From an uncultured Magnetospirillum sp. (GTDB lineage Bacteria; Pseudomonadota; Alphaproteobacteria; Rhodospirillales; Magnetospirillaceae): a stretch of DNA of 64,000 nucleotides. Location of the stretch: NCBI GenBank assembly GCA_903853455.1, contig CAINTR010000204.1, forward strand, positions 2,339 to 66,338. The letters run 5' to 3'. Positions 5,572 through 61,502 of this stretch are shown here, piece by piece. The notes under the pieces are model-generated. The model was given only the letters and a program-made list of their open reading frames with translations. It did not search any database and was not told where the DNA came from. Numbering within the stretch: position 1 is the first letter of the stretch; every line of letters begins with the position of its first letter. A program made the position numbers and the translations under genes.

Positions 5572-5602
5572 GCCCTCAGGCGCCGGGTGCTTGGCGCTTG
5601 GC
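5572..5602 (+). repeat. Truncated copy of the CCCTCA-CGCCGGG structured repeat family
   Basis: GCCCTCAGGCGCCGGG identical to the start of the 29011 copy; abuts the ndk stop. Confidence 0.55.
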
Positions 5603-6025
5603 TTAGCCGGCGATCTCGCAGCCCGAGAAGAAGAAGGCGATCTCGGTGGCGGCATTCTCGGCCGAGTCGGAACCGTGCACCGAATTGGCTTCCACCGACT
5701 CGGCGAAGTCGGCGCGGATCGTGCCGGGGGCGGCGTTGGCCGGGTTGGTGGCGCCCATGATCTCGCGATTGCGGGCGACGGCGCCTTCACCTTCGAGAAC
5801 CTGGACCACGACCGGGCCGGAGATCATGAAGGCGACCAGCTCGCCAAAGAACGACCGCTCGGCATGGACCGAGTAAAACTGGCCGGCCTGTTCCTTGGTG
5901 AGGCGGACGCGCTTCTGGGCGACGATGCGCAGGCCGGCTTCTTCGAAGCGGGCGTTGATCTTGCCGGTGAGGTTGCGCCGGGTGGCGTCCGGCTTGATGA
6001 TCGAGAGGGTACGTTCGATGGCCAT
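5603..6025 (-). CDS. ndk: Nucleoside diphosphate kinase
   Basis: [24 protein letters not shown] active site; 140 aa. Confidence 0.97.
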
Positions 6026-6228
6026 TCGTGAAATTCCTTTCGGCGGTTGCTCGCGCCGCAGGGGTGCCCGGAGGAAAAGTGCTGCTCCGAAGCAAGCGGC
6101 TGCGTTCACCCTCGGCGGCCGGCGCGCGAGGGACGGCGGGTTATAACGCCAACCGCCCGCGAGAGCAACGGGGTGTTTGTGGTCGCACCGGACTGGCATG
6201 CTCCAAGTCGGCGTGCTATTGACCCGGC

Positions 6229-8121
6229 ATGCTTCATATCAACGACCTCACCTTCCGTTACGGTGGCCGCGTCCTGTTCGACCACGCCACCGTCCACATC
6301 TCCGCCGGCCAACGGGTCGGTCTGGTTGGGCGCAACGGCACCGGCAAGACCACCTTGTTCAAGCTGATGCTGGGCGAACTTCACCCCGATGGCGGCGAGA
6401 TCAACCTGCGCGCCCGCGCCCGGCTGGGCCGGCTGGCCCAGGAGGCGCCGGAGGGCGACACCAGCCTGATCGACTGCGTGCTGGCCGCCGACACCGAGCG
6501 CACCGCCCTGTTCGAGGAGGCGGAGACCTCCGCCGACGGCCATCGCATCGCCGAGATCCACGAGCGGCTGCTGGCCATCGACGCCCATACCGCGCCGTCG
6601 CGGGCGGCGGCGATCCTGTCCGGCCTGGGGTTCAACGCCGAGGCGCAAGCCCAGTCGGTGTCGGACTTTTCCGGCGGCTGGCGCATGCGCGTCGCCCTGG
6701 CGGCGGCGCTGTTCGCCTCGCCCGACCTGCTGCTGCTGGACGAGCCCACCAACCACCTGGACCTGGAAGCCACCTTGTGGCTGCAGGCCCATCTCGCCGT
6801 CTATCCCGGCACCCTGGTGGTGATCAGCCATGACCGCGAACTGCTGAACGAGGTCGCCGACCGCATCGTCCACATCGAGGCCGGCAAGCTGAACGCCTAT
6901 GGCGGCAATTACGACCGCTTCGAGGCCACGCGGCGCGCCCGCATGGAATTGCAGGGCAAGGCCTTCACCAAGCAGATGGAGCAGCGCAAGAAGATCCAGT
7001 CCTTCATCGACCGCTTCAAGGCCAAGGCCACCAAGGCCGCCCAGGCCCAAAGCCGGGTCAAGATGCTGGAGCGCATGGAGATGGTGGTGCCGGTGGTCGA
7101 GGACCGGGCCATGTCGTTCGACTTCCCCGATCCCGAGGAGTTGAGTCCGCCCATCATCGCCATCGACCACGGCGTCGCCGGCTATGGCGACAAGGTGGTG
7201 CTGCGCGGCCTCGACATCCGCATCACCATGGACGACCGCATCGCCCTGCTGGGCGCCAACGGCAACGGCAAGTCGACCCTGGCCAAGATCCTGTCGGGCC
7301 GGCTGGACCTGCTGGACGGCCAGTTCCGCAAGCCGTCCAAGCTGAAGATCGGCTACTTCGCCCAGCACCAGACCGAGGAACTGCGCCTGGACGAGACGCC
7401 GTTCGAGCACATGGCCATGCTGATGAAAGGGCTGCCCGAGGCCAAGGTCCGGGCCCAGCTCGGCCGCTTCGGCTTCGAGCAGGAGCGCGCCAACGTCAAG
7501 GTCTCCAGCCTGTCGGGCGGCGAGAAGTCGCGGCTGCTGTTCGCCCTGATGAGCCGCGAGGCGCCGCATCTGATGATCCTGGACGAACCGACCAACCATC
7601 TGGACATCGACGCCCGCGAGGCCCTGGTGGCGGCGCTCAACGCCTATGACGGGGCGGTGATCCTGATCAGCCACGATCCCCACCTGATCGAGATGACCGC
7701 CGACAATCTGTGGCTGGTGGGCGATGGTTGCGTCAAGCCGTTCGACGGCGACCTGGCCGCCTATCGCCGGCTGCTGCTGGATCTGGCCCGTGAATCCCGG
7801 CGCAGCGCCAAGCGGGATTCCTCCGTGGAGAAAAGCGGCGACGCCGCCACCCGCAAGGCCGAACGCAAGGCGGCGGCTGGGGCCCGCGCCCAGTTGGCGC
7901 CGTTGCGCAAGGTGGCCCAGACCGCCGAGAAGGCGCTGGCCGACCTGAATCGCAAGCAGGCCGAGTTGGAGCCGCGTCTGGCCGATCCCGCCCTGTATCA
8001 GGGGCCACCGGCCAAGCTGACCGAGTTGCGCCGTCAGGAAGCCGAACTGGCCCGTCAGGTGGCGGAGGCCGAGGCGATCTGGCTGGAGGCGGCCGAGGCG
8101 CTGGAAAAGGCCCAGGCCTGA
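6229..8121 (+). CDS. ABC-F family ATPase (YheS/Uup-like ribosome-associated factor)
   Basis: Two ABC cassettes ([20 protein letters not shown]; [21 protein letters not shown]), no TM segments, C-terminal coiled coil. Confidence 0.92.
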
Positions 8122-8191
8122 TCCTTCGCTTTCCCATTACAGGACGAAGGTATAGGCTGAACTCGCCAGCACTACTCATGAGCCGCACCGG

Positions 8192-9919
8192 GTGAGCGAG
8201 TCCACAGCTATTCGATTGACCCTTCCTTCCGCCCGGCCGGCCCGTCCGCCCGATCTGGTTCGCCGTGTCCTGGCGCTCATGGTCGGATGGGTGCTGCTGC
8301 TGGTGATCGGCGGCTCGCTGGCGTTCCTGCTCCATTTGCAAGACAAGGCGGTGGAGGCGGCGGCGGCCAATACGCAGGCGGTGGCGCGTCTGCTCGACGA
8401 GCATATCTCCCGGACCCTGACCACGACCAACGGGATCCTCATGCGCGCCGTGCGGGTGGCGCAGGTGCGGCTGCGCGGGCGGATCTCCACCGCCGAGGAA
8501 CTGCAAGAGCTTCTGGTTCTCCAAAGCTTGCTGACCGAGCCGGGGGCACTGCTGGTGACCGATGCCGCCGGAATCGTGATCGTCGCTGGTTTGCCGCCCG
8601 ACGGCAGGGTCGATCTCGGTGACCGGTCGTGGTTCCAGGCGCTGGCCGCCGGGCAGGAGATGGTGGTCGGGCCGCTGATTCAGGGCCGCTACAAAAGCAG
8701 GCTGGTGTTCACCATCGCCCGGCGCATCGTCGATGACGACGGCCGTTTCGCCGGCGCCGTCGTCGCCGGCCTCAACGCCGAATTCTTCACCAATTTCCAG
8801 AAGAGTCTGGTTCTGGGGCCGCGCGGCTATACCGCCGCCGATATCGACGGCATGGTGATGCTCCGCCAACCCCACCCCGAGGCCTATGTGGGCATTTCGG
8901 TTCTGGGTGGCAAGGTGGCCGCCGCCGCCGCGACCGACCCGACCGGGACGCTGCGCACCACGTCGCCGCTGGACGGGGTCGACCGCATGGTTTCGTATCG
9001 CACCGTGGCCGAGTTCGGGGCGGTGGTCAGTGCTGGCATGGCCATGGACGACGTCCTGGAGCCCTGGCGCCAGACCGCCCTGTTGGTTCTCGGCGCGGTG
9101 GTGGTGGTGACCTTGGCCCTGATCGGGTTGGCGCTGCTGGCCTTTCGCGGCCTCGCCCGCGAGGAGGCCTTCACGGCGGGGCTGGAGGCCGTGGTGCACG
9201 AGCGGACCGAGGAGGCCGAGCATCGCGCCGAGGAGGCCCGCCTCGCCAATGAGAGCAAGACCCGCTTTCTCGCCGCCGCCAGCCACGACCTGCGCCAGCC
9301 GCTCCAGGCCGCCGGCATGTTCACCGAAGTGCTGGCGACGCGGGTCACCGAGCCCGGTCAGGTCCAGGTGGTGGAAAAGCTGCGCCAGAGCATCGAGGCC
9401 ACCAATTCGCTGCTGACCACCCTGCTCGACGTTTCGGCGCTGGAAGCCGGCAAGATCAAACCCAATTTCGCCAGTTTCCAGCTGATGCCGCTGCTGGCCG
9501 GGCTGGTGGACCAGATGGAACCCGAGGCTTCGGCGCGCGGCCTGTCCATCGGCGTGGTGCCCACCTCCGCCGTGGTGTCCAGCGACCCGGTGCTGTTGGA
9601 GCGGCTGCTGCGCAACCTGCTGGTCAACGCCGTGCGCCATACCGAAACCGGCGGCATCCTGGTGGGGTGCCGCTATCGCGGCGCCAACGTGGCGATCCAG
9701 GTTTGGGACACCGGAATCGGCATTCCCCCCGACAAGATCCAGGCGGTGTTCGAGGACTTCGTCCGCCTGGACGGCCCATCGGATCGGCGGGGCGGGCGCG
9801 GCCTCGGCCTCGGCCTGGGCGTGGTCCGGCGCATGGCCATCCTGCTGGGGCACACACTGGAACTGCGCTCGATCCCCGGCAAAGGCTCGTGCTTCGGGGT
9901 GGTGGTCGGCCGGGGATAG
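8192..9919 (+). CDS. Membrane sensor histidine kinase (Cache/PDC-like sensor, HisKA, HATPase)
   Basis: Two TM segments, H-box ASHDLRQPL, N-box RNLLVNA, DTGIGI, GLGLGL; GTG start is approximate. Confidence 0.9.
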   Translation: MSESTAIRLTLPSARPARPPDLVRRVLALMVGWVLLLVIGGSLAFLLHLQDKAVEAAAANTQAVARLLDEHISRTLTTTNGILMRAVRVAQVRLRGRISTAEELQELLVLQSLLTEPGALLVTDAAGIVIVAGLPPDGRVDLGDRSWFQALAAGQEMVVGPLIQGRYKSRLVFTIARRIVDDDGRFAGAVVAGLNAEFFTNFQKSLVLGPRGYTAADIDGMVMLRQPHPEAYVGISVLGGKVAAAAATDPTGTLRTTSPLDGVDRMVSYRTVAEFGAVVSAGMAMDDVLEPWRQTALLVLGAVVVVTLALIGLALLAFRGLAREEAFTAGLEAVVHERTEEAEHRAEEARLANESKTRFLAAASHDLRQPLQAAGMFTEVLATRVTEPGQVQVVEKLRQSIEATNSLLTTLLDVSALEAGKIKPNFASFQLMPLLAGLVDQMEPEASARGLSIGVVPTSAVVSSDPVLLERLLRNLLVNAVRHTETGGILVGCRYRGANVAIQVWDTGIGIPPDKIQAVFEDFVRLDGPSDRRGGRGLGLGLGVVRRMAILLGHTLELRSIPGKGSCFGVVVGRG

Positions 9920-9928
9920 CGCGGGACG

Positions 9929-11730: not shown

Positions 11731-13200
11731 TCAAGATCCCCCCGCCAGGGCGTCGAACAGCCGCACCCCGAAGCCGCTGGCGGCCTCGGGGGCCAGGGGA
11801 TCGTCTTCGTCGGCCCATTCCTTGCCCGCCATGTCGATATGGGCCCAGGCGATGCCGTCGGGCACGAAGCGGGACAGGAAGCGGGCGGCGTCGTCATTGT
11901 CGGGAACCTCGCCCCAGGCGCAGTTCTTGACGTCGGCGATGTCGGATTTGATGTCCTCGTCGCAGGACTCGGTCAGCGGCAGCCGCCACAGCGGGTCGGC
12001 CTCGGCCTTGGACAGTTTCAGTAGCCGCTTGGCCAGCTTGTCGTCATTGGCGTAGAGGCCGGCATAGGGATCGCCCAGCACCTCTTCCACCGAGCCGGTC
12101 AGGGTGGCGATGTCGATCATGGTCTTGGGGTCCAGGGTCGCCGCCGCCCAGGCCAGGGCGTCGGCCAGCACCAGACGGCCCTCGGCGTCGGTGTCGATCA
12201 CCTCGACGGTGAGGCCGGAGTAGGATTTGACCACGTCGCCCGGCCGCTGGGCGCGGCCCGACGGCATGTTCTCGGCCAGGGCCAGCACGCCGCAGACATG
12301 GGCCTTGGCTTTCCGGCCGGCGACGGCGCGCAGCGCGCCGATCACCGCCGCCGCCCCGCCCATGTCACCCTTCATGGCGTCCATCTCGTCGTCATCGAAT
12401 TTGATGGAGATGCCGCCGGTGTCGAAGGTGATGCCCTTGCCCACCAGCACCAGCGGCTTGCCCATCGCCCCGCGCCAGCGCAGCAGCACCAGCCGGGGCG
12501 GCCGGGCGCTGCCCATGCCCACCGCCGCCAGCAGGTTCAGCCCGGCCTCGGCCAGGGCGGTCTCGTCCAGCACGGTGACCTCGACCCCCAAGGCCTCCAG
12601 CAGGCGGGCGCGCTGGGCGAACTCCTCCGGCCCCAGCACGTTGCCGGGCTCGTCGGTGAGGTCGCGGGCGAGGAACACCCCCTGGGCCACCTGCTCGCGG
12701 GCGGCGTAGAGGGCGGCGGCGGCTTCGGGGTCGGGGGTGGTGACCACCACCGACTCCAGCACCGGCACCACGTCGTCCTCGTCGTCGGGATCGAGCTTGG
12801 TGCGGTATTTGCGCAAGGGGCGGTAGGCCTTGAGGCACAGGCCGTAGGCCAGTTCCGCCGCCTGGGCCGGCGGCAGGTCCAGCGCCACGGTGGCGGCGAC
12901 GGCGCGGCTGTCGTCCAACTCCTCCAGGATGCAGCCGCCGATGCGGCGCAGCCGGATGGTGTCGAGCTTCCTCGGCTTGCCCAGGCCCGCCACCACCAGG
13001 GCGGTCAGCGGCGGGGCGGGAGCGAGGAACAGCTCGGTCTCCTCTTCCTCGCCGTCGAAGCCCAGCCGCTTCAGGGTCTTTTTCAGCCGCCCATGGGGAT
13101 CGAGGGCGGCGAAAGCCTCGGTCGGCCGCCGGCCCTGCCACACCCCCACGACGACGGCGCCGTGGAGGGGGACGGACGGATGCTGGAAGGAGATTCGCAT
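11731..13200 (-). CDS. M17 leucyl-aminopeptidase paralog (divergent)
   Basis: VGKGITFDTGGISIK, MKGDMGGA, DTDAEGRL, HIDMAG; metal ligands retained. Confidence 0.88.
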   Translation of the reverse strand: MRISFQHPSVPLHGAVVVGVWQGRRPTEAFAALDPHGRLKKTLKRLGFDGEEEETELFLAPAPPLTALVVAGLGKPRKLDTIRLRRIGGCILEELDDSRAVAATVALDLPPAQAAELAYGLCLKAYRPLRKYRTKLDPDDEDDVVPVLESVVVTTPDPEAAAALYAAREQVAQGVFLARDLTDEPGNVLGPEEFAQRARLLEALGVEVTVLDETALAEAGLNLLAAVGMGSARPPRLVLLRWRGAMGKPLVLVGKGITFDTGGISIKFDDDEMDAMKGDMGGAAAVIGALRAVAGRKAKAHVCGVLALAENMPSGRAQRPGDVVKSYSGLTVEVIDTDAEGRLVLADALAWAAATLDPKTMIDIATLTGSVEEVLGDPYAGLYANDDKLAKRLLKLSKAEADPLWRLPLTESCDEDIKSDIADVKNCAWGEVPDNDDAARFLSRFVPDGIAWAHIDMAGKEWADEDDPLAPEAASGFGVRLFDALAGGS

Positions 13201-13219: not shown

Positions 13220-13331
13220 CTCCCTCGCCCCCCGAGAGGGGGGGAGAGGGTTGGGGTGAGGGGGCGGCAGGCAGACGAACCCTCACCCGGCTCGCTTCCG
13301 CTCGCCACCCTCTCCCGCGAGCGGGCGAGGG
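13220..13331. repeat. CCCTCTCCC/GGGAGAGGG REP-like composite palindrome
   Basis: CTCCCTCGCCCC..GGGGAGAGGGTTGGGGTGAGGGG..CCCTCACCCGG..CACCCTCTCCCGCGAGCGGGCGAGGG; near-identical right half at 26977-27029. Confidence 0.85.
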
Positions 13332-13348
13332 GCTTTGGGATCTGCGCG

Positions 13349-14854
13349 TTACTTCCCGGCCTTGTCCTCGTAGAAGTCGGCCACCAGCCGGTCGAGCAGA
13401 CGCACGCCGAAGGCGGTGGCGCCCTTGGGGCAGGTGGCGGTGTCCTTCTTGGACCAGGCCATGCCGGCGATGTCCAGATGGGCCCAGGCGACGTTGTTGG
13501 TGAAGCGCTTGAGGAACTGGGCGGCGGTGATGGAGCCGCCCTCGCGGCCGCCGGTGTTCTTCATGTCGGCGATGTCGGACTTGATCTGCTTGTCGTAGGC
13601 CTCGCCCAGGGGCAGCCGCCACAACTGCTCGCCCACCGCCTTGCCGGCGGCGGCCAGACGGTCGGCCAGGGTGTCGTCGCTGGCGAACAGGCCGGCATAT
13701 TCGCTGCCCAGCGAAATGATGATGGCGCCGGTCAGCGTGGCGAGATCGACCATGAATTTGGGCTTGAAGCGGTCCTGGGTGTACCACAGGGCGTCGGCCA
13801 GCACGAGGCGGCCTTCCGCGTCGGTATTGATGACCTCGATGGTCTGGCCCGACATGGAGGTGACCACGTCGCCGGGGCGCTGGGCGGTGCCCGACGGCAT
13901 GTTCTCCACCAGCCCGACCACGCCGATGGCGTTGACCTTGGCTTTGCGGCCGGCCAGCGCCTTCATGGCGCCGATCACCGCGCCGGCGCCGGCCATGTCC
14001 CACTTCATGTCCTCCATGCCGCCGGCCGGCTTGATGGAGATGCCGCCGGAATCGAAGGTGACGCCCTTGCCGACGAAGGCGATGGGGGCGGTATTCTTGT
14101 CGGCGGCGCCCTGCCAGCGCATGATCACCAGCTTGGATTCGCGCTCCGAGCCCTGGCCGACGCCCAGCAGCGAGCCCATGCCCAGCTTCTTCATCTGCTT
14201 CTCGCCCAGGACCTCGACCTCCACCTCCAGGTCCTTCAAGGTCTCGGCCACCGCCGCCAGACTTTCGGGATGGATGATGTTGGCCGGCTCGCTGACCACG
14301 TCGCGGGTCAGGAACACGCCGTCGGCGATCTTGTCCAGCTTGGCGAAGGCGGTCTTGGCGTCGGAGACGGCCTCGACCTGCACCGTCGTCTTCTTCAAGG
14401 AGGGCTTGTCCTCCTTCTTCTGCTTGGTCATGTACTTGTCGAAGCGGTAGGCGCGCAGCCGCGCCCCGAACCCCGCCTGGGCGGCGAATTCGGCCGGCGA
14501 CAGCGCCGAGCCCTCCACCGGATCCACCGCCACCACCACCTCGGTCTCGCCGCTGGTCAGCAATTGGGCCACGGCGGTACCGCCGAAGGCCTGCGCCCCT
14601 TGCGCGTCGATGTCCTTGGCCTTGCCCAGGCCGATCAGCAGCACCCGCGACACCGGCAGCCCGGCGGGGGCGAGGATCATCAGGGTCTGGTTCTTCTTGC
14701 CCTCGAAGCGGCTGGTGGCGATGGCGCGGCTGAGGGCGCCGTCGGCCTCGTCATCCAGCTTATGGGCCGAGGCGGACAGCACCTTGCCTTCGAGCACGGC
14801 GACGGCGATGGCGCCCTCGGTGGGGAGCGACGGCTTGGCAAAAGCGATCTTCAT
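13349..14854 (-). CDS. pepA: Cytosol leucyl aminopeptidase
   Basis: VGKGVTFDSGGISIKP, MKWDMAGA, NTDAEGRL, GGSITAAQFL, HLDIAG. Confidence 0.95.
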   Translation of the reverse strand: MKIAFAKPSLPTEGAIAVAVLEGKVLSASAHKLDDEADGALSRAIATSRFEGKKNQTLMILAPAGLPVSRVLLIGLGKAKDIDAQGAQAFGGTAVAQLLTSGETEVVVAVDPVEGSALSPAEFAAQAGFGARLRAYRFDKYMTKQKKEDKPSLKKTTVQVEAVSDAKTAFAKLDKIADGVFLTRDVVSEPANIIHPESLAAVAETLKDLEVEVEVLGEKQMKKLGMGSLLGVGQGSERESKLVIMRWQGAADKNTAPIAFVGKGVTFDSGGISIKPAGGMEDMKWDMAGAGAVIGAMKALAGRKAKVNAIGVVGLVENMPSGTAQRPGDVVTSMSGQTIEVINTDAEGRLVLADALWYTQDRFKPKFMVDLATLTGAIIISLGSEYAGLFASDDTLADRLAAAGKAVGEQLWRLPLGEAYDKQIKSDIADMKNTGGREGGSITAAQFLKRFTNNVAWAHLDIAGMAWSKKDTATCPKGATAFGVRLLDRLVADFYEDKAGK

Positions 14855-16876: not shown

Positions 16877-17076
16877 CCCCTCTCCCGTCTCACGGGAGAG
16901 GGTGCCGAGCGCAAGCGAGGCGGGTGAGGGCGCGCGCGCGCCGGCTTCGCCGGCAAACATATGGTCGCATGCCTGCGCATGCGGCGCGCCATCCGACTCA
17001 TTCGCTGGCGCGAGGCCCGCGCTATCCGCGCGTGCCGCCCTCACCCCGACCCTCTCCCGCAAGCGGGAGAGGGGGG
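16877..17076. repeat. CCCTCTCCC/GGGAGAGGG REP-like element with ~107 bp internal spacer
   Basis: CCCCTCTCCCGTCTCACGGGAGAGGG..GGGTGAGGG at left; CCCTCACCCCGACCCTCTCCCGCAAGCGGGAGAGGGG at right; lies between divergent amrS and amrBA. Confidence 0.8.
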
Positions 17077-17110
17077 AAAGCTTCTGCCAAGCCATAATGA
17101 GAACTGGCTC

Positions 17111-26915: not shown

Positions 26916-27030
26916 TCCCTCGCCCGCTTGCGGGAGAGGGAGGGGCCCGCCGCCGCAGGCGGGGGGAGGGTGAGGGCCCTCACCCGGCTCGGCTATGCCT
27001 CGCCACCCTCTCCCGCAAGCGGGAGAGGGG
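26916..27030. repeat. CCCTCTCCC/GGGAGAGGG REP-like composite palindrome
   Basis: CCCTCGCCCGCTTGCGGGAGAGGG...GGGTGAGGGCCCTCACCCGG...CACCCTCTCCCGCAAGCGGGAGAGGGG. Confidence 0.85.
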
Positions 27031-27056
27031 CTTTGCGGCGATCTTTCGAGGATTCC

Positions 27057-28941: not shown

Positions 28942-28964
28942 GCCCCGTCCTCTCTGCCCAAGAA

Positions 28965-28997
28965 AAAGCCCCCCGGAGCGTCGCTCCGGGGGGCTTT
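28965..28997. terminator. Intrinsic terminator
   Basis: AAAGCCCCCCGGAGC-gtc-GCTCCGGGGGGCTTT between convergent genes. Confidence 0.85.
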
Positions 28998-29010
28998 GTC
29001 GTATATCAGC

Positions 29011-29121
29011 GCCCTCAGGCGCCGGGCGGGGCACCTCCGTGCCCCTTGGCTTTCGCCGCATGGGCGGCGGCGGCCCTTGGCCTTGCCGACGAGCGAATGA
29101 ATGGCTCCATTCGCTCGTCGG
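29011..29121 (+). repeat. CCCTCA-CGCCGGG structured repeat, full copy
   Basis: GCCCTCAGGCGCCGGGC-GGGGCACctccGTGCCCC-TTGGCTTTC-GCCGCatggGCGGC...CGACGAGCGAATG..CATTCGCTCGTCG. Confidence 0.85.
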
Positions 29122-29123
29122 TC

Positions 29124-30110
29124 TCAGAACATGGAGGCGAGGACGCGATCCGGCGGTTGGTGGCCGTCGGCGAAGGTCTTGATGTTGATCAGCACCTTCT
29201 CGCCCATGTCGACGCGGCTTTCCAGCGTGGCGGAGCCGAGATGGGGCAGCAGCATCACATTGTCCAGCGCCAGCAGCTTGGGGTTGACCGCCGGCTCGTG
29301 CTCGAACACGTCCAGACCGGCACCGGCCAGATCGCCCCGGATCAGCATGCGGGTCAGGGCGTTCTCGTCGACGATCTCGCCACGGGCGGTGTTGACCACA
29401 TAGGCGTGCTTGGGCAGCAGTTCCAGGCGGCGGGCCGACAGCAGATGGAAGGTGGCGGGGGTATGCGGGCAGTGGACGGTCACCACGTCCATGCGGGCCA
29501 GCATCTGGTCCAGGCTCTCCCAGTAGGTGGCTTCCAGCTCGGTCTCGATGTCCGGGTGGACCTTCTTGCGATTGTGGTAGTGGATCGACATGCCGAAGGC
29601 CTTGGCGCGCCGCGCCACCGCTTGGCCGATGCGGCCCATGCCGATGATGCCGAGGCGCTTGCCCCAAATCCGGTGGCCCAGCATGAAGGTGGGGCCCCAG
29701 CCCTTCCAGTCGCCCGAGCGGATCAGGCGCTCGCCCTCGGACAGGCGGCGCGGCACCGCCAGGATCAGGGCCATGGCCATGTCGGCGGTGTCCTCGGTCA
29801 GGACGCCGGGGGTGTTGGTGATGGTGATGCCGCGCTGGCGGGCGCTGGCGAGGTCGATGTGATCGACGCCGGTGCCGAAATTGGCGATCAGCTTGAGGTT
29901 GGGGCCGGCCTGGGCCATGACGGCGGCGTCGATGCGATCGGTCACGGTGGGGACCAGGACGTCGGCGGTCTTGACCGCCTCGATCAGCTCGGCCTTGGTC
30001 ATGGGATGATCGTCGACGTTCAACCTGGTGTCGAACAGTTCCATCATCCGGGTTTCGATGGCGTCGGGCAGCTTGCGGCTGACCACGACGACCGGCTTCT
30101 TATGTGGCAT
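29124..30110 (-). CDS. D-2-hydroxyacid dehydrogenase (glyoxylate/hydroxypyruvate reductase-like)
   Basis: FGTGVDHID, NTPGVLT, GMGRIG, VNTARG, GLDVFEHEP, LPHLGSAT. Confidence 0.93.
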   Translation of the reverse strand: MPHKKPVVVVSRKLPDAIETRMMELFDTRLNVDDHPMTKAELIEAVKTADVLVPTVTDRIDAAVMAQAGPNLKLIANFGTGVDHIDLASARQRGITITNTPGVLTEDTADMAMALILAVPRRLSEGERLIRSGDWKGWGPTFMLGHRIWGKRLGIIGMGRIGQAVARRAKAFGMSIHYHNRKKVHPDIETELEATYWESLDQMLARMDVVTVHCPHTPATFHLLSARRLELLPKHAYVVNTARGEIVDENALTRMLIRGDLAGAGLDVFEHEPAVNPKLLALDNVMLLPHLGSATLESRVDMGEKVLINIKTFADGHQPPDRVLASMF

Positions 30111-31792: not shown

Positions 31793-31843
31793 GGGGGAAT
31801 ATCTCCTTATTATACCGGCGAGCCACTGTCGTTGCTCGCCTCA

Positions 31844-31952
31844 TTGTCCCTCAATCGCCGGGCGGGGCCTCGCGGCCCCTTGGCTTTCGCGGCATGAGCC
31901 GCGCCGGGCCTTGCCCGCAACTTCGAGCCGATGGATTCATCGGCTCGTCGGG
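31844..31952 (+). repeat. CCCTCA-CGCCGGG structured repeat, full copy
   Basis: 80/86 nt identical to 42597-42682 by manual alignment; hairpins GGGGCC/GGCCCC, GCGGC/GCCGC, CGAGCCGATG/CATCGGCTCG. Confidence 0.9.
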
Positions 31953-31954
31953 AT

Positions 31955-40659: not shown

Positions 40660-42591
40660 CTACTCGGCGGCCATCTGGCGGGCGGGCGGCGGCAACAGGG
40701 TCACCACCTTCAGCTCGGTCTTGACCCTTGTGGTGGTGCCGTCCTGGAAGGTGATGACGGCGTCCACCGGCACCATCTCGCGGTCGCCGTAGACCGAATC
40801 GATGATGTCGCCGTATTTGTCGTTGATGACGCCGCGCCGCACCTTGCGGGTGCGGGTCAGCTCGCCGTCGTCGGCGTCCAACTCCTTGTAGAGCAGCAGG
40901 AATTTGCGGATGCGCTGGGGCTCGGGCAGGGTCTGGTTGACCTTTTCGACCTCGGCGGTCAGCAGGTCGTAGACCTGCGGCTGGGCCGACAGGTTGGTGT
41001 AGTTGGTGAACGAGATGCCCTTGCTCTCCGCCCATTTGGACACGATGGAAAAGCGGATGCAGATGATGGCCGACAGATAGGGCTTGGTGTCGCCCAGGAT
41101 CACCGCCTCGGCGATGAAGGGCGAGAATTTCAGCTTGTTCTCGATGAATTGCGGCGAGAAGCGCACCCCCAGGGCGGTGGTGGCCAGATCCTTGATACGG
41201 TCGATCACCACCAGATGACCGTTCTCGGGCTTGATGTAGCCGGCGTCGCCGGTCTTCAGCCAGCCGCCCGGCAGCATGTCGACCTGACTGGTTTCCGGGC
41301 TCTTGTAATAGCCGCAGAACATGCCGTCGGTCTGGGCCACGATCTCGCCGACCCCGTTGACGTCGGGGTTGTCGATGCGGATCTTGGCGTCGTCGAACGG
41401 GATGCCGACGCTGTCGAAGTCGATGTCGCCGGCACGGTGGACGGTGTAGGCGCCGGCCAGTTCGGTCTGGCCGTAGATCTGGCGCAGCGGCACCCCCATG
41501 GCCAGGAAGAAGCGGAAGGTCTCCGGCCCCAGCGCCGCGCCGCCGGTGGCGGCCGAGCGCAGGAACGAAAAGCCGATGCGGTCGCGCAGCGCCGCGAACA
41601 GGATGATGTCGGCCAGCTTCGACCGCTTGCCCCGGTCCAGCGCCTTCATGCCCAGCTTCATGCCCAGGTCGAACATCGCCTGCTTGAAGCGGGTGGAGTC
41701 CATCATGCGCGAGCGCACGTCGGCGGCGATGCTTTCCCACATGCGCGGCGCCAGCAGGACGAAATTGGGGCCGATTTCCCGCATGTCGGCCATCATCGTC
41801 TCGGGCTCCTCGACGAAGTTGACGATGTTGCGGCAGATCAGCGGCTGGGTGACGGCGTAGATCTGCTCCATGATCCAGGGCAGCGGCAGCACCGAGACGT
41901 AGTCGTCGCCGGCCTGCTTGGGATCGGCGCGCAAGTAAGCGGTGGCGTGGCGCAGGAACGGCCCGGCCTGGAGCATGGCCAGCTTGGGATGGGAGGTGGT
42001 GCCCGAGGTGGTGCACAGGATGGCGACGTCGTCGCCCTTGCCCAGGGCGACCTCGGCCTCGAACAGGCCGGGCTGACGCTCGGCCAGTTCCACCGCCTTG
42101 ACCTTCAGATCCTCATAGCTGATCAGCCGGTCGTCTTGGTATTTGCGCATGCCGCGCGGATCGAAATAGACGATGTGGCGCAAGCTGGGGACCTCGGCGG
42201 AAATCTCCAGCAGCTTGTCCACCTGCTCCTCGTCCTCGGCCAGCACGGTAGTGGCGCCGGTATAGGTCAGCAGATAGGCCACTTCCTTGTTCATGGAATC
42301 GTGGTAGACGCCCAGCGACAGCGCTCCCAGGGCATGGGTCGCCACCTCGCCCCAGACGCATTCGGGGCGGTTCTTGCCCAGGATGGCCACCACGTCGCCG
42401 CGCTTGACCCCGAGCGCGTGCATGCCGAGCGCCAGCATCTTCACCCGCTCCAGGTAGTCGGCCCAACTGAAGCTGTTCCAGATGCCGAATTCCTTCTCCC
42501 GCATGGCGATGTCGCCGGGCCAGGTCCGGGCGTTGTGCATCAGCGCCTTGGGGAAGGTGTCGTGGATGGCGGAGTCGAGATACTCGGTCAT
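40660..42591 (-). CDS. Long-chain acyl-CoA synthetase (FadD-like)
   Basis: TSGTTSHPK, YGQTE, GWLKTGD, IDRIKD. Confidence 0.9.
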   Translation of the reverse strand: MTEYLDSAIHDTFPKALMHNARTWPGDIAMREKEFGIWNSFSWADYLERVKMLALGMHALGVKRGDVVAILGKNRPECVWGEVATHALGALSLGVYHDSMNKEVAYLLTYTGATTVLAEDEEQVDKLLEISAEVPSLRHIVYFDPRGMRKYQDDRLISYEDLKVKAVELAERQPGLFEAEVALGKGDDVAILCTTSGTTSHPKLAMLQAGPFLRHATAYLRADPKQAGDDYVSVLPLPWIMEQIYAVTQPLICRNIVNFVEEPETMMADMREIGPNFVLLAPRMWESIAADVRSRMMDSTRFKQAMFDLGMKLGMKALDRGKRSKLADIILFAALRDRIGFSFLRSAATGGAALGPETFRFFLAMGVPLRQIYGQTELAGAYTVHRAGDIDFDSVGIPFDDAKIRIDNPDVNGVGEIVAQTDGMFCGYYKSPETSQVDMLPGGWLKTGDAGYIKPENGHLVVIDRIKDLATTALGVRFSPQFIENKLKFSPFIAEAVILGDTKPYLSAIICIRFSIVSKWAESKGISFTNYTNLSAQPQVYDLLTAEVEKVNQTLPEPQRIRKFLLLYKELDADDGELTRTRKVRRGVINDKYGDIIDSVYGDREMVPVDAVITFQDGTTTRVKTELKVVTLLPPPARQMAAE

Positions 42592-42596
42592 TTGTA

Positions 42597-42697
42597 TTGT
42601 CCCTCAAGCGCCGGGCGGGGCCTCACGGCCCCTTGGCTTTCGCCGCACGAGCGGCGCCGGGCCTTGCCCGCAACTCCGAGCCCGTCGGCTCGTCGGG
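42597..42697 (+). repeat. CCCTCA-CGCCGGG structured repeat, full copy (inside the operon)
   Basis: GGGGCCtcacGGCCCC, GCCGCacgaGCGGC, CGAGCccgtcgGCTCG; between livG and fadD. Confidence 0.9.
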
Positions 42698-42730
42698 CTT
42701 CGTGCATCTCGATGACGCTTCGCTTGCTCA

Positions 42731-43555
<825 letters not shown>

Positions 43556-48479: not shown

Positions 48480-49514
48480 ATGCATCAGGACATTCATTTC
48501 GAGCGTACTGGAACTCTGGGCCGCATCGTTCTCGACCGGCCCAAGGCGCTCAACGCCCTGACCCTGGACCAAGTCCACGTCATCCATCCGCAGTTGGACG
48601 CCTGGGCCGCCGATCCGGCCGTCACCGCCGTGGTGATCGAAGGGGCGGGCGAGAAGGCGTTCTGCGCCGGCGGCGACATCAAGCTGCTGTTCGAAGCCTG
48701 CAAGGCCGGCGACCGCGAATTCGTCGCCGCCTTCTACCGTGACGAATACCGGCTGAACCGCCGCATCAAGACCATGCCCAAGCCCTATGTGGCCCTGCTC
48801 GACGGCATCGTCATGGGCGGCGGCGTCGGCGTGTCGGTGCATGGCCGCTTCCGCGTCGCCACCGAGCGCACCCTGTTCGCCATGCCGGAAACCGGCATCG
48901 GCTTCTTCCCCGACGTGGGCGGCAGCCATTTCCTGCCCCATCTGCCCGGCGACATCGGCATGTATCTCGGCCTGACCGGGGCACGGCTGAAGGCGGCCGA
49001 CACCCTGCATGTGGGCGTCGCCACCCATTATGTGGAAAGCGAGCGGTTGCCGGCCCTGCGCGAAGCCCTGTCCGAGGCCCGCGACGCCGCCGAGGTCGAG
49101 GCGACGCTGGCCGGCTTCGCCAGCGATCCCGGCCCCGCCGCAATCGACGACAAGCGCGCCCTGATCGACCGCTGCTTCGGCAAGGCCTCCCTGGCGGAGG
49201 TGCTGGCGGCGCTGGCGGCGGAGTCCGACCCTTGGGCGGCCGAGACCCTGGCCGGTCTCGTCAAGAAGTCGCCCCATCTGGTGGCGGTCAGCTTCGAGAT
49301 GATCCGGCGCGGCCGGACCATGAGCTTCGACGACTGCATGAAAATGGAATTCCGCCTCGCCATGGAACTGGCGCCGGCCCACGATTTCGTCGAGGGGGTG
49401 CGCGCCCTGCTGATCGACCGCGACAACACGCCCGACTGGCGCAAGGCGGGCGCCGCCGCCGAGGTGCTGGCACCGTTCGACACGGTGCCGGCCTGCGGCG
49501 ACCTGACGTTCTAG
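48480..49514 (+). CDS. 3-hydroxyisobutyryl-CoA hydrolase-like enoyl-CoA hydratase family protein
   Basis: LDRPKALNAL, FCAGGD, MGGGVG, FAMPETGIGFFPDVG, DFVEGVRA.LID. Confidence 0.92.
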   Translation: MHQDIHFERTGTLGRIVLDRPKALNALTLDQVHVIHPQLDAWAADPAVTAVVIEGAGEKAFCAGGDIKLLFEACKAGDREFVAAFYRDEYRLNRRIKTMPKPYVALLDGIVMGGGVGVSVHGRFRVATERTLFAMPETGIGFFPDVGGSHFLPHLPGDIGMYLGLTGARLKAADTLHVGVATHYVESERLPALREALSEARDAAEVEATLAGFASDPGPAAIDDKRALIDRCFGKASLAEVLAALAAESDPWAAETLAGLVKKSPHLVAVSFEMIRRGRTMSFDDCMKMEFRLAMELAPAHDFVEGVRALLIDRDNTPDWRKAGAAAEVLAPFDTVPACGDLTF

Positions 49515-49530
49515 AAAGCCGGACGCGACT

Positions 49531-49620
49531 GCGGCCGCGCGCCTCGTGGCGCGGGAGCCAAGGGCCACGGAGGTGGCCCGCCCGGCGCATGAGGGCGTCG
49601 CTGATCGGTTGCGATCAGCG
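49531..49620 (-). repeat. CCCTCA-CGCCGGG structured repeat (reverse orientation)
   Basis: Reverse complement: CGCTGATCGCAACCGATCAGCG..CCCTCATGCGCCGGGC-GGGCCACctccGTGGCCC-TTGGCTCCC-GCGCCacgaGGCGC. Confidence 0.85.
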
Positions 49621-49630
49621 AAATATGGTA

Positions 49631-49951
49631 TCAGTTGTCGCGCGGGCCGCAGCGGCGCGAGCGGTGGTGGCGGTGCTCCTCTTCCGCGGCGCAGCAGCTG
49701 CACAGCCGGGCCTTGGGATTGGCCCGCAGGCGTTCGGGTTCGATGGTGTCGGTGCACGACCGGCACACCCCCGACGACGGCGCTCCGGCCATGCGGCCGA
49801 GAACGGACCTGAGGGCGGCTTCGGTGAAAACTTCAGACCGTTCGGCGGCGTAATCAAGATCGTCCAACCAATCCTCCTCGCGCTTTTGGCGGCTGGAGAG
49901 TGGCAGGCTCGGGCGCCGAGGAACAATGAAGAGTTCGTGTCGGTCGGCCAT
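49631..49951 (-). CDS. TraR/DksA-family C4 zinc-finger protein
   Basis: DDLDYA (DxxDxA) followed by a helix and CRSC-X17-CSCC; 106 aa. Confidence 0.8.
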   Translation of the reverse strand: MADRHELFIVPRRPSLPLSSRQKREEDWLDDLDYAAERSEVFTEAALRSVLGRMAGAPSSGVCRSCTDTIEPERLRANPKARLCSCCAAEEEHRHHRSRRCGPRDN

Positions 49952-55413: not shown

Positions 55414-55429
55414 CACCCGCTTCGCGAAC

Positions 55430-56800: not shown

Positions 56801-56839
56801 GTTTGTGACCGGCAAGCCGAGAAATCGGCTTGCCTCGTG

Positions 56840-56890
56840 CCCCTCAATCGCCGGGCCTTGCTCGCGGCTCCGAGCGAAATTCGCTCGTCG
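56840..56890 (+). repeat. CCCTCA-CGCCGGG structured repeat, internally deleted copy
   Basis: CCCTCAATCGCCGGGCCTTGC..CGAGCGAAATTCGCTCGTCG; lacks the module between the two CGCCGGGC direct repeats. Confidence 0.75.
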
Positions 56891-56893
56891 CTC

Positions 56894-57532: not shown

Positions 57533-57608
57533 AATCCCCCCTCGCCCTCTGCTTGTTGTATCGCCATTATCTCGGGAAGGATTGCCGTCAGGTCAAGGAG
57601 TTAGATGC

Positions 57609-57977: not shown

Positions 57978-58074
57978 CTCGGGCTGGCGAATTGGTAATG
58001 ATGCCTATAGGGTAACTGTTGGATTTCCGGTTTCGCCTCCCGGCACCGGGCTGTGGTTTTTGTTGGGGTATGTC

Positions 58075-58440
58075 ATGACCAAGTCTGTACTGATCGTCGA
58101 AGACAACGAGTTGAACATGAAATTGTTCAACGACCTGCTTCAAGCCAACGGCTACACGACGCTCCAGACCAAGGATGGCCGCGAGGCCATGGACATCGCC
58201 CGCAAGCACCGCCCCGACCTGATCCTGATGGACATCCAACTGCCGGAAATCTCCGGCCTTGAGATCACCAAGATGCTCAAGGAAGACGCCGAACTGAAAA
58301 ACATCCCGGTCATCGCGGTGACCGCCTTCGCCATGAAGGGCGACGAGGAGAAGATTCGCGAAGGCGGCTGCGAGGGCTATATCGCCAAGCCCATCTCGGT
58401 CTCCAGCTTCCTTCAGACCGTCTCCCGCTTTCTCGACTGA
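58075..58440 (+). CDS. divK: DivK-like single-domain response regulator
   Basis: [59 protein letters not shown]. Confidence 0.88.
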
Positions 58441-58447
58441 TCCTCCC

Positions 58448-60715
58448 ATGCGCGCGGTCTGGTCGATTGGACTGGCCGTCATCGCTCTTACGGCGATCCT
58501 GCTGGGGATCGACGTCTTCGCCCTTCGGCATGTGGCGGTCGAACCGGACGAGCGGCCCGGCGCCTTCCTGGCGCCGCAGCGGGTGCTGACGCGTATTCAA
58601 GCCGATCTGGAGCGGGTGGCGGTGGGGCGCTCGCCCCTGCGGCTGCCCGAGGGCGTGGTTCGCGACCCGCTGGAGCATCTGGTGGATGCGGTCGATGCCT
58701 TGCTGCGGGGGCGCGACAACCTGTTCCACGATCATCTGGCGCTGGTGCGGGCCGAGGCGTTGCGGCGGTTGGCCCATCAGGACGAGGTGATCCGGGGGCA
58801 GCGTTATCAGACCGACCTGGACAAGGTGGTGCTGCCGACCGCCTATGGCCAAAGCCTCGCCCTGCTGCGCAACCTGTCGCCGCTGCTGGCCCTGGTCCAG
58901 ACCATGCGGCTGGTGGACGCGGTGCTGGTGCTGGAAACCGCCGAGACCGCCGCGCACCAGATGCGCTACGACCTGTCGGCCCGGCGCAATCTTTGGATCT
59001 ATACCGCCGGCGACGCCGTTCTCGACGAAATCTGGCTGCGGCTGCCTTGTCCGGTGGTGGTGGGCCGCCGCGACGCTTTCGAGGATGTGGCCAAGCGGCT
59101 CGGTCCTTTGGGCGGGCCGTTGCTGTCCTGTCCGGTATTCGACGACCAGCGGCAGGATTTCGCCTTGATGGAGCGTCTGGCCCAGGATCCCAAGGGGTTC
59201 GGCGGGTTGGCCGTTCCGCCGCCGCCGCCTGTGCCCCGCTATGACGGGACCCAGCCGGCGCCGCCATGGAACCGGGATGCCGCCATCCGCTTCATGGCCG
59301 ACAATCCCGACGCCGCCGAGGCGCCGCTGCGGCTGGCGACCCTCGAAGATCCGCTGGCCCGGCTGGACCTCGCCCTGTTCCTGCATGCCTTCCGCGAGCC
59401 CTCGGCGGCGCGGGACGACGAGATCCGCTCGCTGATGGCCGGCATCGACCGCTCGGCCCTGCCCAGGGCCACGCCTTCATCGCTCCGCTTCGCCGGCCAG
59501 CCGCGCCCTTATGACGGCACCGACGCCTCGCTGTTGCCCAGTCTGCGGCTGGCGGCGTTCACCGGGATCGTCGAGGTGGCGTCGGGGAGCTACCGCTATC
59601 CCTATGTGGTTCCCTGCGCCGTGATGCAGCGCCGCCCGGCCCTGGCGGCGGCCGTGACCCCCGAGACGCTTCCCGTCGAGGGCGACGGCAAGGTCGATCT
59701 GCGCTTGCCGGTCTCGGGTTGCCTGGCCGGGTGCGGCAAGGTGGAGGGCTTCCCCGAGGCCGACTTCGCCGCCTTCCTGATCGCCACCGCCGCCGCCGAT
59801 GGGGGCGGCAATGTCAGCCGGGGCAAGATGCCGCGCTATCCCCTGCCGGTGGCGGATCTGGGGCGCATGGAGCGGATTTTGTCGGACCCGCGCGCCCTGC
59901 TGGCCGAGCCGGCGCCGGTGTTGGATTATCCGTATCAGACCTGGGGCTATGCCTCGCTGACCAACCACGCCACCGCGTTGGAACTGCGCCGTCTGTTCGA
60001 GGCGGCCAAGGCCAGCCTCGGCCAGTGGTTTCGCGGCAAGGGCCTGGACGAGACCGAAGCGGCCGCCGCCGCCGAGCGGGCGTTGTTCGCCTCGGCCACC
60101 GGTTCCGGCTGCGGCGACGGGCGGCCGCCGCGGTCGCTGCGCCGGCTGCTGGTGGACGTGGCGCCGGTGGAGGAGATCGCCGCCTTCCTCAAGGAGCCGG
60201 CGACCGAGGACCTGAAGCCGTTCGGCACCTGCGCCGTCTTCGCGCCGTCTGATCCGATCCTGCATGTGGCGGTCGGCCATCCGGCGGCGCTGCCCCCGCT
60301 TTGGGAGGCGGCGGCATCCATTTCGGGCGAGATGGATCAGGAAGGGCTGCGGGCGGTGCGCCAGGTCAACGCCCGCAACCATTTCGGCAAGACCGCCCTG
60401 ATGGCGGCGGCCCAGGCCAATCGGCTCGACGCGGTTCGCTTCCTGCTCGACCATGGCGCGCGGGTCAACGCCGACACCTGGCAGACCGCCAAGCAGCGGA
60501 GCCTGGCCCACGATTCCCGCACCGCCTTGATGTATGCCGCCGGCAACGGCTCGTTGCCGCTGATCACCTTGCTGCTGGATGCCGGCGCCGACCGCTTCCA
60601 TACCGACAGCAAGGGGCGCCGCGCCATCGACTACCTGCTGGGCACAGGCCCCGGCCCGGCCAACCCGCTTCTGACCCCGGCCGAACGGCTGCGGGCGGCG
60701 CGGCTTTTGTACTGA
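58448..60715 (+). CDS. Large exported/membrane-anchored protein with C-terminal ankyrin repeats
   Basis: N-terminal hydrophobic segment; NHFGKTALMAAA...LLDHGARVN and SRTALMYAAGNG...LLDAGAD. Confidence 0.8.
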   Translation: MRAVWSIGLAVIALTAILLGIDVFALRHVAVEPDERPGAFLAPQRVLTRIQADLERVAVGRSPLRLPEGVVRDPLEHLVDAVDALLRGRDNLFHDHLALVRAEALRRLAHQDEVIRGQRYQTDLDKVVLPTAYGQSLALLRNLSPLLALVQTMRLVDAVLVLETAETAAHQMRYDLSARRNLWIYTAGDAVLDEIWLRLPCPVVVGRRDAFEDVAKRLGPLGGPLLSCPVFDDQRQDFALMERLAQDPKGFGGLAVPPPPPVPRYDGTQPAPPWNRDAAIRFMADNPDAAEAPLRLATLEDPLARLDLALFLHAFREPSAARDDEIRSLMAGIDRSALPRATPSSLRFAGQPRPYDGTDASLLPSLRLAAFTGIVEVASGSYRYPYVVPCAVMQRRPALAAAVTPETLPVEGDGKVDLRLPVSGCLAGCGKVEGFPEADFAAFLIATAAADGGGNVSRGKMPRYPLPVADLGRMERILSDPRALLAEPAPVLDYPYQTWGYASLTNHATALELRRLFEAAKASLGQWFRGKGLDETEAAAAAERALFASATGSGCGDGRPPRSLRRLLVDVAPVEEIAAFLKEPATEDLKPFGTCAVFAPSDPILHVAVGHPAALPPLWEAAASISGEMDQEGLRAVRQVNARNHFGKTALMAAAQANRLDAVRFLLDHGARVNADTWQTAKQRSLAHDSRTALMYAAGNGSLPLITLLLDAGADRFHTDSKGRRAIDYLLGTGPGPANPLLTPAERLRAARLLY

Positions 60716-60737
60716 CCGAAGCCGGTCATCAAAGGCC

Positions 60738-60756
60738 TATGTTGCGATGCAGCATA
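60738..60756. promoter_or_regulatory. PhaR-like palindrome upstream of the GNAT gene
   Basis: TATGTTGC-GAT-GCAGCATA (TGC-N3-GCA core). Confidence 0.45.
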
Positions 60757-60795
60757 AACACCCCATCTCATGAGGAGCACACCAGGAGGCTCGCC

Positions 60796-61410
60796 ATGCA
60801 GATCCGCCGGCTCTACGCCCACGAACGCCCGCTTTACGCCGAACATCTCAAGCGGCTGGCGGAGAACGACCGTCGGCTGCGCTTCGCTCGCGGCGGCGTC
60901 ACCGACGGCTGGATCGACACCCATGTGGCCGGCATCGCCGAGGACGACCTGGTTCTGGGGGCCGTGGAGCGGGACCGGGTGATCGGCGCCGCCCATGTCG
61001 CCCTCAGCGGCGAGTTGGCGGAGGTGGGAGTCAGCGTCGACAGCGACAACCGCACCGGCGGCATCGGCTCCGACCTGCTGCGTCAGGCGGTGACCTTCGC
61101 CCGCAACCGCCGTGCCGAGAAGCTGTACACCCTCTGTCTGTCGGACAATCGCTCCATGGTGGCGCTGGCCCGGCGCAGCGGCATGGTGGTGCATTATCAG
61201 GGCAGCGAGGCCGAAGCCTATCTCGACCTGCCGCCCCCCGATTCGGTGACGGTCGGCCAGGAAGTATCCATCGGACTGTTCGCGGTGTTCCACGACTGGG
61301 CCGAAGTGATGGATTCCTACAGCGAGGTTCTGGTCAACGCCATGCCGCCCATATCGCTGGACGGGCTGCCCTTGCCGCTGCCCGAGTGGCTGGGCGGCGC
61401 CAAGAGGTAG
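60796..61410 (+). CDS. GNAT-family acetyltransferase
   Basis: IRRL...HLKRL..DRRLRF, IGAAH, AEVGVSV....RTGGIGSDL, CLSDNRSM.ALAR. Confidence 0.85.
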   Translation: MQIRRLYAHERPLYAEHLKRLAENDRRLRFARGGVTDGWIDTHVAGIAEDDLVLGAVERDRVIGAAHVALSGELAEVGVSVDSDNRTGGIGSDLLRQAVTFARNRRAEKLYTLCLSDNRSMVALARRSGMVVHYQGSEAEAYLDLPPPDSVTVGQEVSIGLFAVFHDWAEVMDSYSEVLVNAMPPISLDGLPLPLPEWLGGAKR

Positions 61411-61427
61411 GGACTCGTACCAAAATG

Positions 61428-61502
61428 CGTTGATCGAAACCGATCAACGCCGCCCTCAGCGGCGGGCGGGCGCGAGCGCCCTTGCCTCCCGCGCCATGAG
61501 GC
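61428..61502 (+). repeat. CCCTCA-CG(C/G)CGGG structured repeat, divergent copy
   Basis: CGTTGATCGAAACCGATCAACG..CCCTCAGCGGCGGGC-GGGCGCgaGCGCCC-TTGCCTCCC-GCGCCatgaGGC. Confidence 0.75.

Follow-up and report, generated by a model that had tools for sequence, protein, structure and literature searches.

What kind of sequence is repeated seven times, each time beside a stop codon, in a 64,000-nt stretch of an uncultured Magnetospirillum sp. (GenBank assembly GCA_903853455.1, contig CAINTR010000204.1, C204:2339-66338, hereafter the window), the assembly of which comprises 5.18 Mb in 223 contigs at 65% G+C? The original prediction, made from the letters of the window, had offered a selected RNA or single-stranded DNA structure and, as an alternative, a non-autonomous mobile unit. 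It is the latter that is borne out: most probably the repeat is one family of MITEs (miniature transposable elements that are non-autonomous), which has IS630-type ends, a conserved multi-hairpin core and many decayed or rearranged derivatives, because its terminal inverted repeats (TIRs) are of the IS630 type, orthologous sites are empty in relatives, identical recent copies lie at contig ends and a 43-nt module is nested within its copies.

Anatomy and spread of the repeat

Complete elements are 130-200 nt long and carry no transposase gene. We describe them in S orientation, the reverse complement of that used in the original prediction, which is usually the mRNA sense. The commonest form, type A, starts with ATA-CCGAC, a variable long hairpin (H4, GAGCGAATGA…TCATTCGCTC) and GGAGTTGC, continues with H3 (CGGSC-AAG-GSCCG), H2 (GCGCC-WCRT-GGCGC), GAAAGCCAAG and H1, and ends with the head, GCCCGGCG-NN-TGAGGG, followed by an AT-rich tail of about 9 nt (RCAnnAAnA). 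H1 has 6-8 bp, a length of 15 to 19 nt and very variable sequence (43 variants in 80 copies). In type B a long hairpin (ACCAAATCCCGATGAG…CTCATCGGGATTTGGT) takes the place of the 5' part, and an extra 3' hairpin is followed by GGATACGGTAT. Short forms are explained by deletion between two GCCGGGC direct repeats. The nested 43-nt module has two hairpins (GCACGC-GCAG-GCGTGC, AATCATATGTTT, GCCAGC-GAA-GCTGGC) and occurs 23 times in the genome; 22 of these lie within elements, in a single orientation, in the loop of H2 or H3 or in the gap between head and H1. The layout and stem variants given originally held, except that the "second CGCCGGGC-CTTG" is really part of a fourth short hairpin, CGGGC-CTT-GCCCG. 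A long-range helix of GUUGCGGGC with GCCCGGCG, taken from the minimum-free-energy fold, was unsupported, the head being invariant and H3 covarying locally.

An exact head motif, CCCTCA-N1-4-CGSCGGGC, occurs 211 times in the genome, and about 245 instances are reached with nhmmer matches added; a strict pattern gives 109 copies here and 2-46 copies in each of 19 of the 20 congeners. Tandem arrays with a period of 96-115 nt are also present. A pattern scan of the genome collection returned at least 107 loci in other taxa, and among the matches listed were Paramagnetospirillum, Magnetospirillum fulvum, Phaeospirillum, Caenispirillum and Niveispirillum, as well as Roseomonas/Roseococcus, Erythrobacter/Altererythrobacter/Sphingomonas and Stellaceae. 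R1 is a covariance model with 78 positions and 16 base pairs, trained on 30 genomic copies that lie outside the window. When applied to an even sample of Alphaproteobacteria, it matched 22 of 301 genomes and 20 of 254 genera at E ≤ 1e-5. The PLSDB plasmids gave zero matches to the element. Rfam returned 0 matches at its gathering thresholds; the best one below them, the Pseudomon-groES RNA (RF01721), resembles the element in its run of short GC-rich hairpins at similar spacing and matches weakly over its full length at 31840-31944 (+), but it scores 28.7 bits where the gathering threshold is 50 (E ~0.4 at the scale of the window), and the element therefore does not belong to that family. In the literature on Magnetospirillum and relatives we found no description of a family matching the element.

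IS630-type ends and mobility

Twenty type A copies possess a 3' hairpin (H5, GACGAGC…GCTCGTC), which is followed by exactly GGTAT in ten, and from these ten it follows that complete type A elements read ATACCGACGAGC…GCTCGYCGGTAT, with a 12-nt TIR; the other inverted repeat pair of complete copies is ATACCAAATCCCG…GGTAT. Both ends are present in 13 type A and 13 type B copies (26 complete), and 60 type A copies have the 5' end only. When searching for a parent insertion sequence (IS) with the DDE_3 Pfam model and seeking inverted repeats around the genes detected, we observed that such repeats bound insertion sequences around three DDE_3 genes of the genome (IS-A and the two copies of IS-B, Table 1), and that two overlapping open reading frames (ORFs) of these IS score as IS630-family transposase (NCBIfam NF033545; Pfam DDE_3). 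Congener G019 has a 98% identical IS-A with ends ATACCGACGAGC…GCTCGCCGGTAT, by which the IS-A boundaries were confirmed. Type A and type C ends have ATACCGRCGAGC in common with the 1187-bp IS, over 12 nt in the type A alignment; type B and B' ends have ATACCAAnTCCCG in common with the 1171-bp IS, over up to 27 nt, and B' agrees with the IS-B ends at 26/30 nt on the 5' side and 18/20 nt on the 3' side. The core of the element is unrelated to the IS interior. Judged by their termini, the complete copies are MITEs with IS630-type ends, which an IS630 transposase would recognise in trans.

Orthologous positions were empty in congeners at four loci in total. The junction between livG and the AMP-ligase gene is a bare overlap, GTGGCGTGATGAGCGAG, in 12 congeners and is empty in the closer relatives G012, G016 and G003, while the insertions found there differ, being type A in our genome, G007 and G008, type D in G014 and G015, and a solo head in G002. 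The lrgA/lrgB-like junction is a plain ATGA overlap in 15 congeners and was filled independently in our genome and in G019; at both of these junctions, filling in different lineages was independent. Moreover, the window copy at 29012 is missing at 14 of 14 orthologous sites in congeners, and that at 31848 is missing at the orthologous site of G016, the sole syntenic relative. Eight identical B' copies at contig ends point to a recent burst. We would picture copies spreading into intergenic DNA, mostly at the 3' ends of genes and within operons, with many of them afterwards losing one or both ends or internal modules.

Several findings weigh against a MITE family as the whole account. Most copies are without one or both TIRs, and 88 type A heads have no recognisable TIR at all. 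A genome-wide comparison of flanks gave no excess of direct repeats and no signal of target-site duplication; the flanks of the element are A/T-rich, and TA/TA is clean at only one IS copy (C223) and not at that of G019. Homologues of IS-A were detected in 7 of the 21 congeners only, elements in 20. The part conserved across orders is the core and not the TIRs, for which simple parasitism is no explanation. In addition, insertions at gene junctions neither lie at TA nor carry TIRs; there must therefore be a second way of spreading (recombination or another mechanism).

Other candidates for a parent were also considered. Inverted pairs of heads were rejected, as ordinary genes lie between them, and a loose scan for TIR pairs of long parents gave noise only. 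As a side observation, C8:45232-46657 holds two more DDE_3 (IS630-like) genes 1 kb apart; their candidate ends, CTAAAGCGGTTTGC, bear no relation to the element. At the filled lrgA/lrgB-like junction of G019 (L163), the upstream gene ends in …DEGQKQ*, encoded by GAGGGGCAAAAGCAATGA, and 100 nt downstream the head and tail of the element itself have nearly the same sequence; it seems that what was left of an earlier copy is now the C-terminus of the upstream protein.

Gene junctions, stem covariation and rival explanations

Context was counted on a codon-bias gene map of 4682 genes, with one entry per intergenic region. Element-bearing regions comprised 61 convergent (20%), 128 co-directional (8.7%) and 13 divergent (2.1%) ones (chi-square p 4e-19), and the co-directional regions held 90 sense and 38 antisense copies (p 5e-6). 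The original prediction had claimed a strict polarity, with the reverse complement always on the mRNA just after a stop codon. This is true of all seven window copies and is an effect of the window only, because the bias across the genome is 70:30. The head/tail end is the one that abuts coding sequence: a start codon follows TGAGGG by 5-9 nt in 35 copies, and in 64 copies the stop codon of an opposite-strand gene lies within 0-19 nt of this end. Stops beside the head were TAG in 28 cases, TAA in 19 and TGA in 11, compared with 25%, 18% and 57% genome-wide.

As a side observation, 81% of the 58 genes with a stop at most 25 nt from a head end in TAG or TAA, against 43% genome-wide. These stops often lie within a recurring TAGAGTCTTTT motif that contains GANTC, and at C73:2713-2715 a comparison with the closest relative shows three changes in the last three codons, each synonymous or in the stop and each toward A/T. 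It may be that gene 3' ends are reshaped by the element or by its preference for targets. On the strand opposite the usual mRNA sense, H1 plus CTTGGCTTTC passes a loose intrinsic-terminator scan at 29028-29054 (+) and in every type A copy, and such a signal could matter for the 38 antisense copies and for copies in the 61 convergent regions, where the head lies about 11 nt past the stop.

Thirty-six elements have an ATGA 6-11 nt past TGAGGG together with a co-directional stop no more than 260 nt upstream, and 24 of these have an ATG or GTG that overlaps the upstream stop (ATGA or TGATG), mostly as ATGAGCGAGG. The mini-ORF opened there ends exactly at the downstream ATGA in 21 of the 24 and at the TGA of TGAGGG in the other 3, and never runs into the gene (0/24); random phase would give one third (p ~1e-8 for 21/24), and the mini-ORFs are 11-58 codons long, with more than 12 distinct lengths. 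In other taxa 6 of 9 junction mini-ORFs fit the same coupling pattern, and about 10% of all copies stand in a coupled or ORF context. Given a fixed tail of 9 nt, the next ATG shares its frame with the TGA of TGAGGG and has GAGGG at Shine-Dalgarno distance. TIR-less derivatives at overlapping stop/start junctions have ATGAGCGAGG on the upstream stop as their beginning, keep an open frame across the core and terminate at the next gene's ATGA, TGAGGG offering a stop in frame and, 9 nt ahead of the ATG, a GAGGG that resembles a Shine-Dalgarno sequence; going by these frame statistics, ribosomes would pass from gene to gene and the insertion would be non-polar.

We further suggest, as a possibility that we consider less probable than its opposite, that the core (linker, H1, GCCCGGCG-NN-TGAGGG and the 9-nt tail) is a selected "polarity-neutralising cassette", in which two frames meet a stop codon, GAGGG would be held at a fixed distance from the next ATG and the third frame would stay open. 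If so, the element could colonise translationally coupled operons harmlessly, it would be explained why, in several orders of Alphaproteobacteria, conservation with compensated stems falls on the core and not on the ends of the transposon, and likewise the use of two different IS630-type vehicles and a vehicle-free spread by an ATGA-targeted route; the element would then be an alphaproteobacterial counterpart of the interspersed repetitive units of mycobacteria (MIRUs), which are said to go back to Supply et al. 1997.

Two MIRU papers describe insertion at start codons, a coupled ORF with -4 spacing and tetranucleotide direct repeats (PMC12548453, PMC3184786). MIRUs and the present element are alike in being GC-rich units of 40-100 nt within operons, in being able to form tandem arrays, in inserting at start codons, in the ORF overlapping stop and start with -4 spacing and in having empty and filled orthologous sites (PMC12548453, PMC3184786). 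They differ in phylum, in the small share of coupled copies here (~10%) and in the IS630 TIRs of our complete copies, and the likeness described is one of behaviour. In a review, RUP of Streptococcus pneumoniae is an IS630-derived MITE linked to IS630-Spn1 and thought to be mobilised in trans. Our element is similar to RUP, being non-coding, intergenic, about 100-200 nt long, present in some 100 or more copies and provided with IS630-family termini, and presumably mobilised in trans as well; it differs in that a four-hairpin core is common to two TIR types and that most copies are one-ended or TIR-less. We conclude that the repeat, although its kind is known, is a family not described before: a MITE linked to IS630 that can live within operons as MIRUs do. 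Beside MIRUs it offers a second independent system in which to study how repeats enter overlapping stop/start codons and keep translational coupling, here in non-pathogenic relatives open to laboratory work, such as Magnetospirillum and Phaeospirillum; it accounts for a large share of the intergenic repeats and assembly breaks in the genus, and annotators gain from it a model for some 245 loci in each genome which might otherwise be taken for small RNAs or small proteins. A hairpin core conserved across orders on two IS630 end types also raises the question of what conserves the interiors of MITEs.

The stems bear on whether RNA is selected. In 80 parsed copies of our genome, H1 had 533 Watson-Crick pairs, 4 A.C and 0 G.T, H2 was Watson-Crick in 400/400, and H4 had 475 Watson-Crick pairs, 5 A.C and 1 G.T, the stems being about 99% Watson-Crick. 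For a cross-taxon alignment, cmsearch on 100 of the pattern-scan loci gave 129 matches in other Alphaproteobacteria. In this alignment 94% of the cells were paired, whereas shuffles gave 63.6% and sliding the partners by 1-3 columns left no more than 50%; 15 of the 16 pairs changed on both sides, and the covariation score was 0.508 versus 0.107, the observed value being reached by 0/500 shuffles. Compensated variation, the observation that stems vary and yet stay paired, was thus confirmed. Palindromic DNA elements give the same compensatory covariation as structured cis-regulatory RNA. Across taxa, G.T plus T.G (18) and A.C plus C.A (20) in about 1800 cells displayed no strand preference, and both strands fold about equally well. 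These equal counts and equal folding mark DNA palindromes, or else stems that must pair very strictly, unlike typical structured RNA, and the stem data give no positive sign of RNA-level selection. The earlier step from covariation and strict polarity to a selected RNA structure is unsupported, given the 90:38 ratio, the nearly pure Watson-Crick pairing and the balance of the two mismatch classes.

A mainly selected cis-acting RNA, that is, a multi-hairpin 3'-untranslated region (3' UTR) or intercistronic element that stabilises the upstream mRNA, directs its processing or terminates transcription, would nevertheless account for the strong covariation and the excess of sense copies; window copies are transcribed, because they lie between a stop codon and an intrinsic terminator, they fold more stably than shuffled sequences do (z -2.2 to -5.9), the sense strand is favoured by 9 of 10 wobble-type mismatches in our genome, and in the other orientation H1 plus CUUGGCUUUC passes a loose terminator scan. 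We regard it as improbable, since G.U and A.C are equally rare across taxa (each ~1% of cells), 30% of the informative copies are antisense, no Rfam family applies, and it is DNA elements that show polymorphism of presence and absence, TIRs of the IS type and nested inserts. By analogy with REP and ERIC elements, which do both, an RNA role would be compatible with a MITE family, and an added RNA-level role in 3' UTRs is possible.

Families of repeats already known fare worse. The element resembles the REP/BIME elements of enterobacteria and the REPINs of Pseudomonas as an extragenic mosaic of GC-rich palindromes with compensated stems and hundreds of copies, which are concentrated at 3' ends and in convergent regions and for the most part share a transcript with the upstream gene; that it is such a family moved by a REP-associated tyrosine transposase (RAYT) is nevertheless highly unlikely, because its unit is not an inverted REP doublet, its termini match IS630 elements of the DDE type, and PF01797 (Y1_Tnp) had 0 matches in a genome rated 100% complete, with 6 of 14 control genomes positive, so that the RAYT/TnpA gene flanked by the repeat which the original prediction had suggested was not found. 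Chen and Shapiro are said to have described, in 2003, the CcrM-associated intergenic repeats (CIRs) of Caulobacter and Brucella. According to reviews, CIRs are intergenic, about 110 bp long and conserved between alphaproteobacterial species, with two long arms and stop codons in all six frames. Identity with this family or with a Rhizobium-specific intergenic mosaic element (RIME), likewise described in Alphaproteobacteria, is suggested by size, intergenic location and conservation across genera, and by a mild enrichment of GANTC just past the tail (25 in 20 nt, ~8.6 expected); we think it very unlikely, as GANTC lies within 30 nt after the tail in only 27 of 203 copies (13%) and has no conserved position in core or loop, the published descriptions set the two long arms and closed frames of CIRs apart from our four short hairpins and open frames, and Caulobacter and Brucella were absent among the 80 of 107 scan loci listed by name. 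The least credible alternative is a functional small protein, with the "MSE…SQG…RPxPALEGQKQ" mini-ORFs as genes: the frame is kept in 21/24 junction copies, but only about 10% of copies have an ORF context, the 5' parts of the ORFs are unrelated and their lengths range over 11-58 codons, and conservation tracks nucleotide palindromes and not codons. Coding by the family as a whole was rejected, the length of H1 not being a multiple of three and most copies lying outside ORFs.

Copies in the window and other repeats

A search of the window with R1, run without filters, ranked as its top seven matches exactly the seven copies noted before, at the positions given, and the next match, where noise begins, had 13.9 bits (Table 1). 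The names given to neighbouring genes (livG, ndk and others) were also correct. Four of the seven copies are full length, the one at 56841 is a short form, and at 5573 and 61453 only remnants are left. For the pattern CGCCGGGC-N-TTGGCTTTC there are 3 occurrences versus 0.00 expected. The copies at 5573 and 29012 lie within 3' UTRs, because each is flanked by a stop codon and a terminator hairpin: the former has the ndk stop (5603-5605) on one side and an intrinsic terminator (5521-5491) on the other, and the latter lies between the stop of the 2-hydroxyacid dehydrogenase gene (29124-29126) and a GC-rich hairpin with a T-run (~28958-28999, - strand). The short form bears a 3' hairpin, GGCAAGCCGATTTCTCGGCTTGCC-GGTCAC, and is grouped with the H5-bearing copies.

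Table 1. Coordinates of element copies in the window and of the related insertion sequences (R1 column: start of match and score)
Feature	Position	Strand	R1 match	Remarks
Remnant: linker fragment, head (GCGCCTGAGGG) and hairpin GACGAGCGTGGCTCGTC-GATAG	5546..5602	-	5573, 15.9 bits (E 0.036)	
Type A copy	29003..29123	-	29012, 66.8 bits	degenerate 5' TIR GACCGACGAGCG, without 3' TIR
Complete type A element, 143 nt	31812..31954	-	31848, 95.3 bits	both TIRs; order on - strand: ATCCCGACGAGC (5' TIR and hairpin H4), H3, H2, GAAAGCCAAG, H1, GCCCGGCG-AT-TGAGGG, tail, hairpin H5, GCTCGCCGGTAT (3' TIR)
TIR-less intercistronic copy	42592..42730	-	42601, 94.5 bits	between livG-like ABC ATPase gene and AMP-binding enzyme gene
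47-codon mini-ORF through the element	42588..42731	-		ATG overlaps livG stop (TGATG); TGA overlaps downstream ATG (ATGA)
Type B-like copy	49515..49631	+	49525 (+), 52.5 bits	directly after enoyl-CoA hydratase stop (49512-49514); 3' module CGTCGCTGATCGGTTGCGATCAGCGA-AATATGGTAT, among type B 3' ends
Short form	56806..56893	-	56841, 21.8 bits	head joined to H4; H1-H3 deleted between two GCCGGGC direct repeats
Type B copy	61418..61503	-	61453, 26.7 bits	5' side cut off by DUF1345 gene stop (61504-61506); 3' module GCGTTGATCGGTTTCGATCAACGC-ATTTTGGTAC
IS-A, 1187 bp	C223:310-1497			ends TTAATACCGACGAGCG and ATAATACCGGCGAGCC
IS-B, ~1171 bp, two copies 91% identical	C152:17869-19041, C71:7646-8817			ends TAATACCAAGTCCCGGTGA and TTATACCAAATCCCAATGAG

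Other repeats were also observed. A second, unrelated family with the hairpin CCCTCTCCCGCAAGCGGGAGAGGG occurs in the window at 13280-13337, 16889-16930, 17026-17079 and 26917-27035, and elsewhere in the genome at C19:18630-18938, C96:302-601 and C38:5757-6077. It is this family that flanks, on both sides, all three DUF559 (Vsr-like endonuclease) genes of the genome, and not the main element, for which a flanked DUF559 gene had originally been suggested. A third repeat, the inverted pair TCGTCACTCCCGCGAAAGCGGGAGTCCAT / ATGGATTCCCGCTTTCGCGGGAATGACGA at 4755-4839 of the window, has 38-nt arms that are 84% complementary, and the same unit is found after a tandem array of the main element at C206:15115. 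Further, the window contains two direct repeats, D1 and D5 (11907-12391 and 13540-14024), which are 78% identical and 1633 nt apart and are probably adjacent paralogous genes on the - strand.

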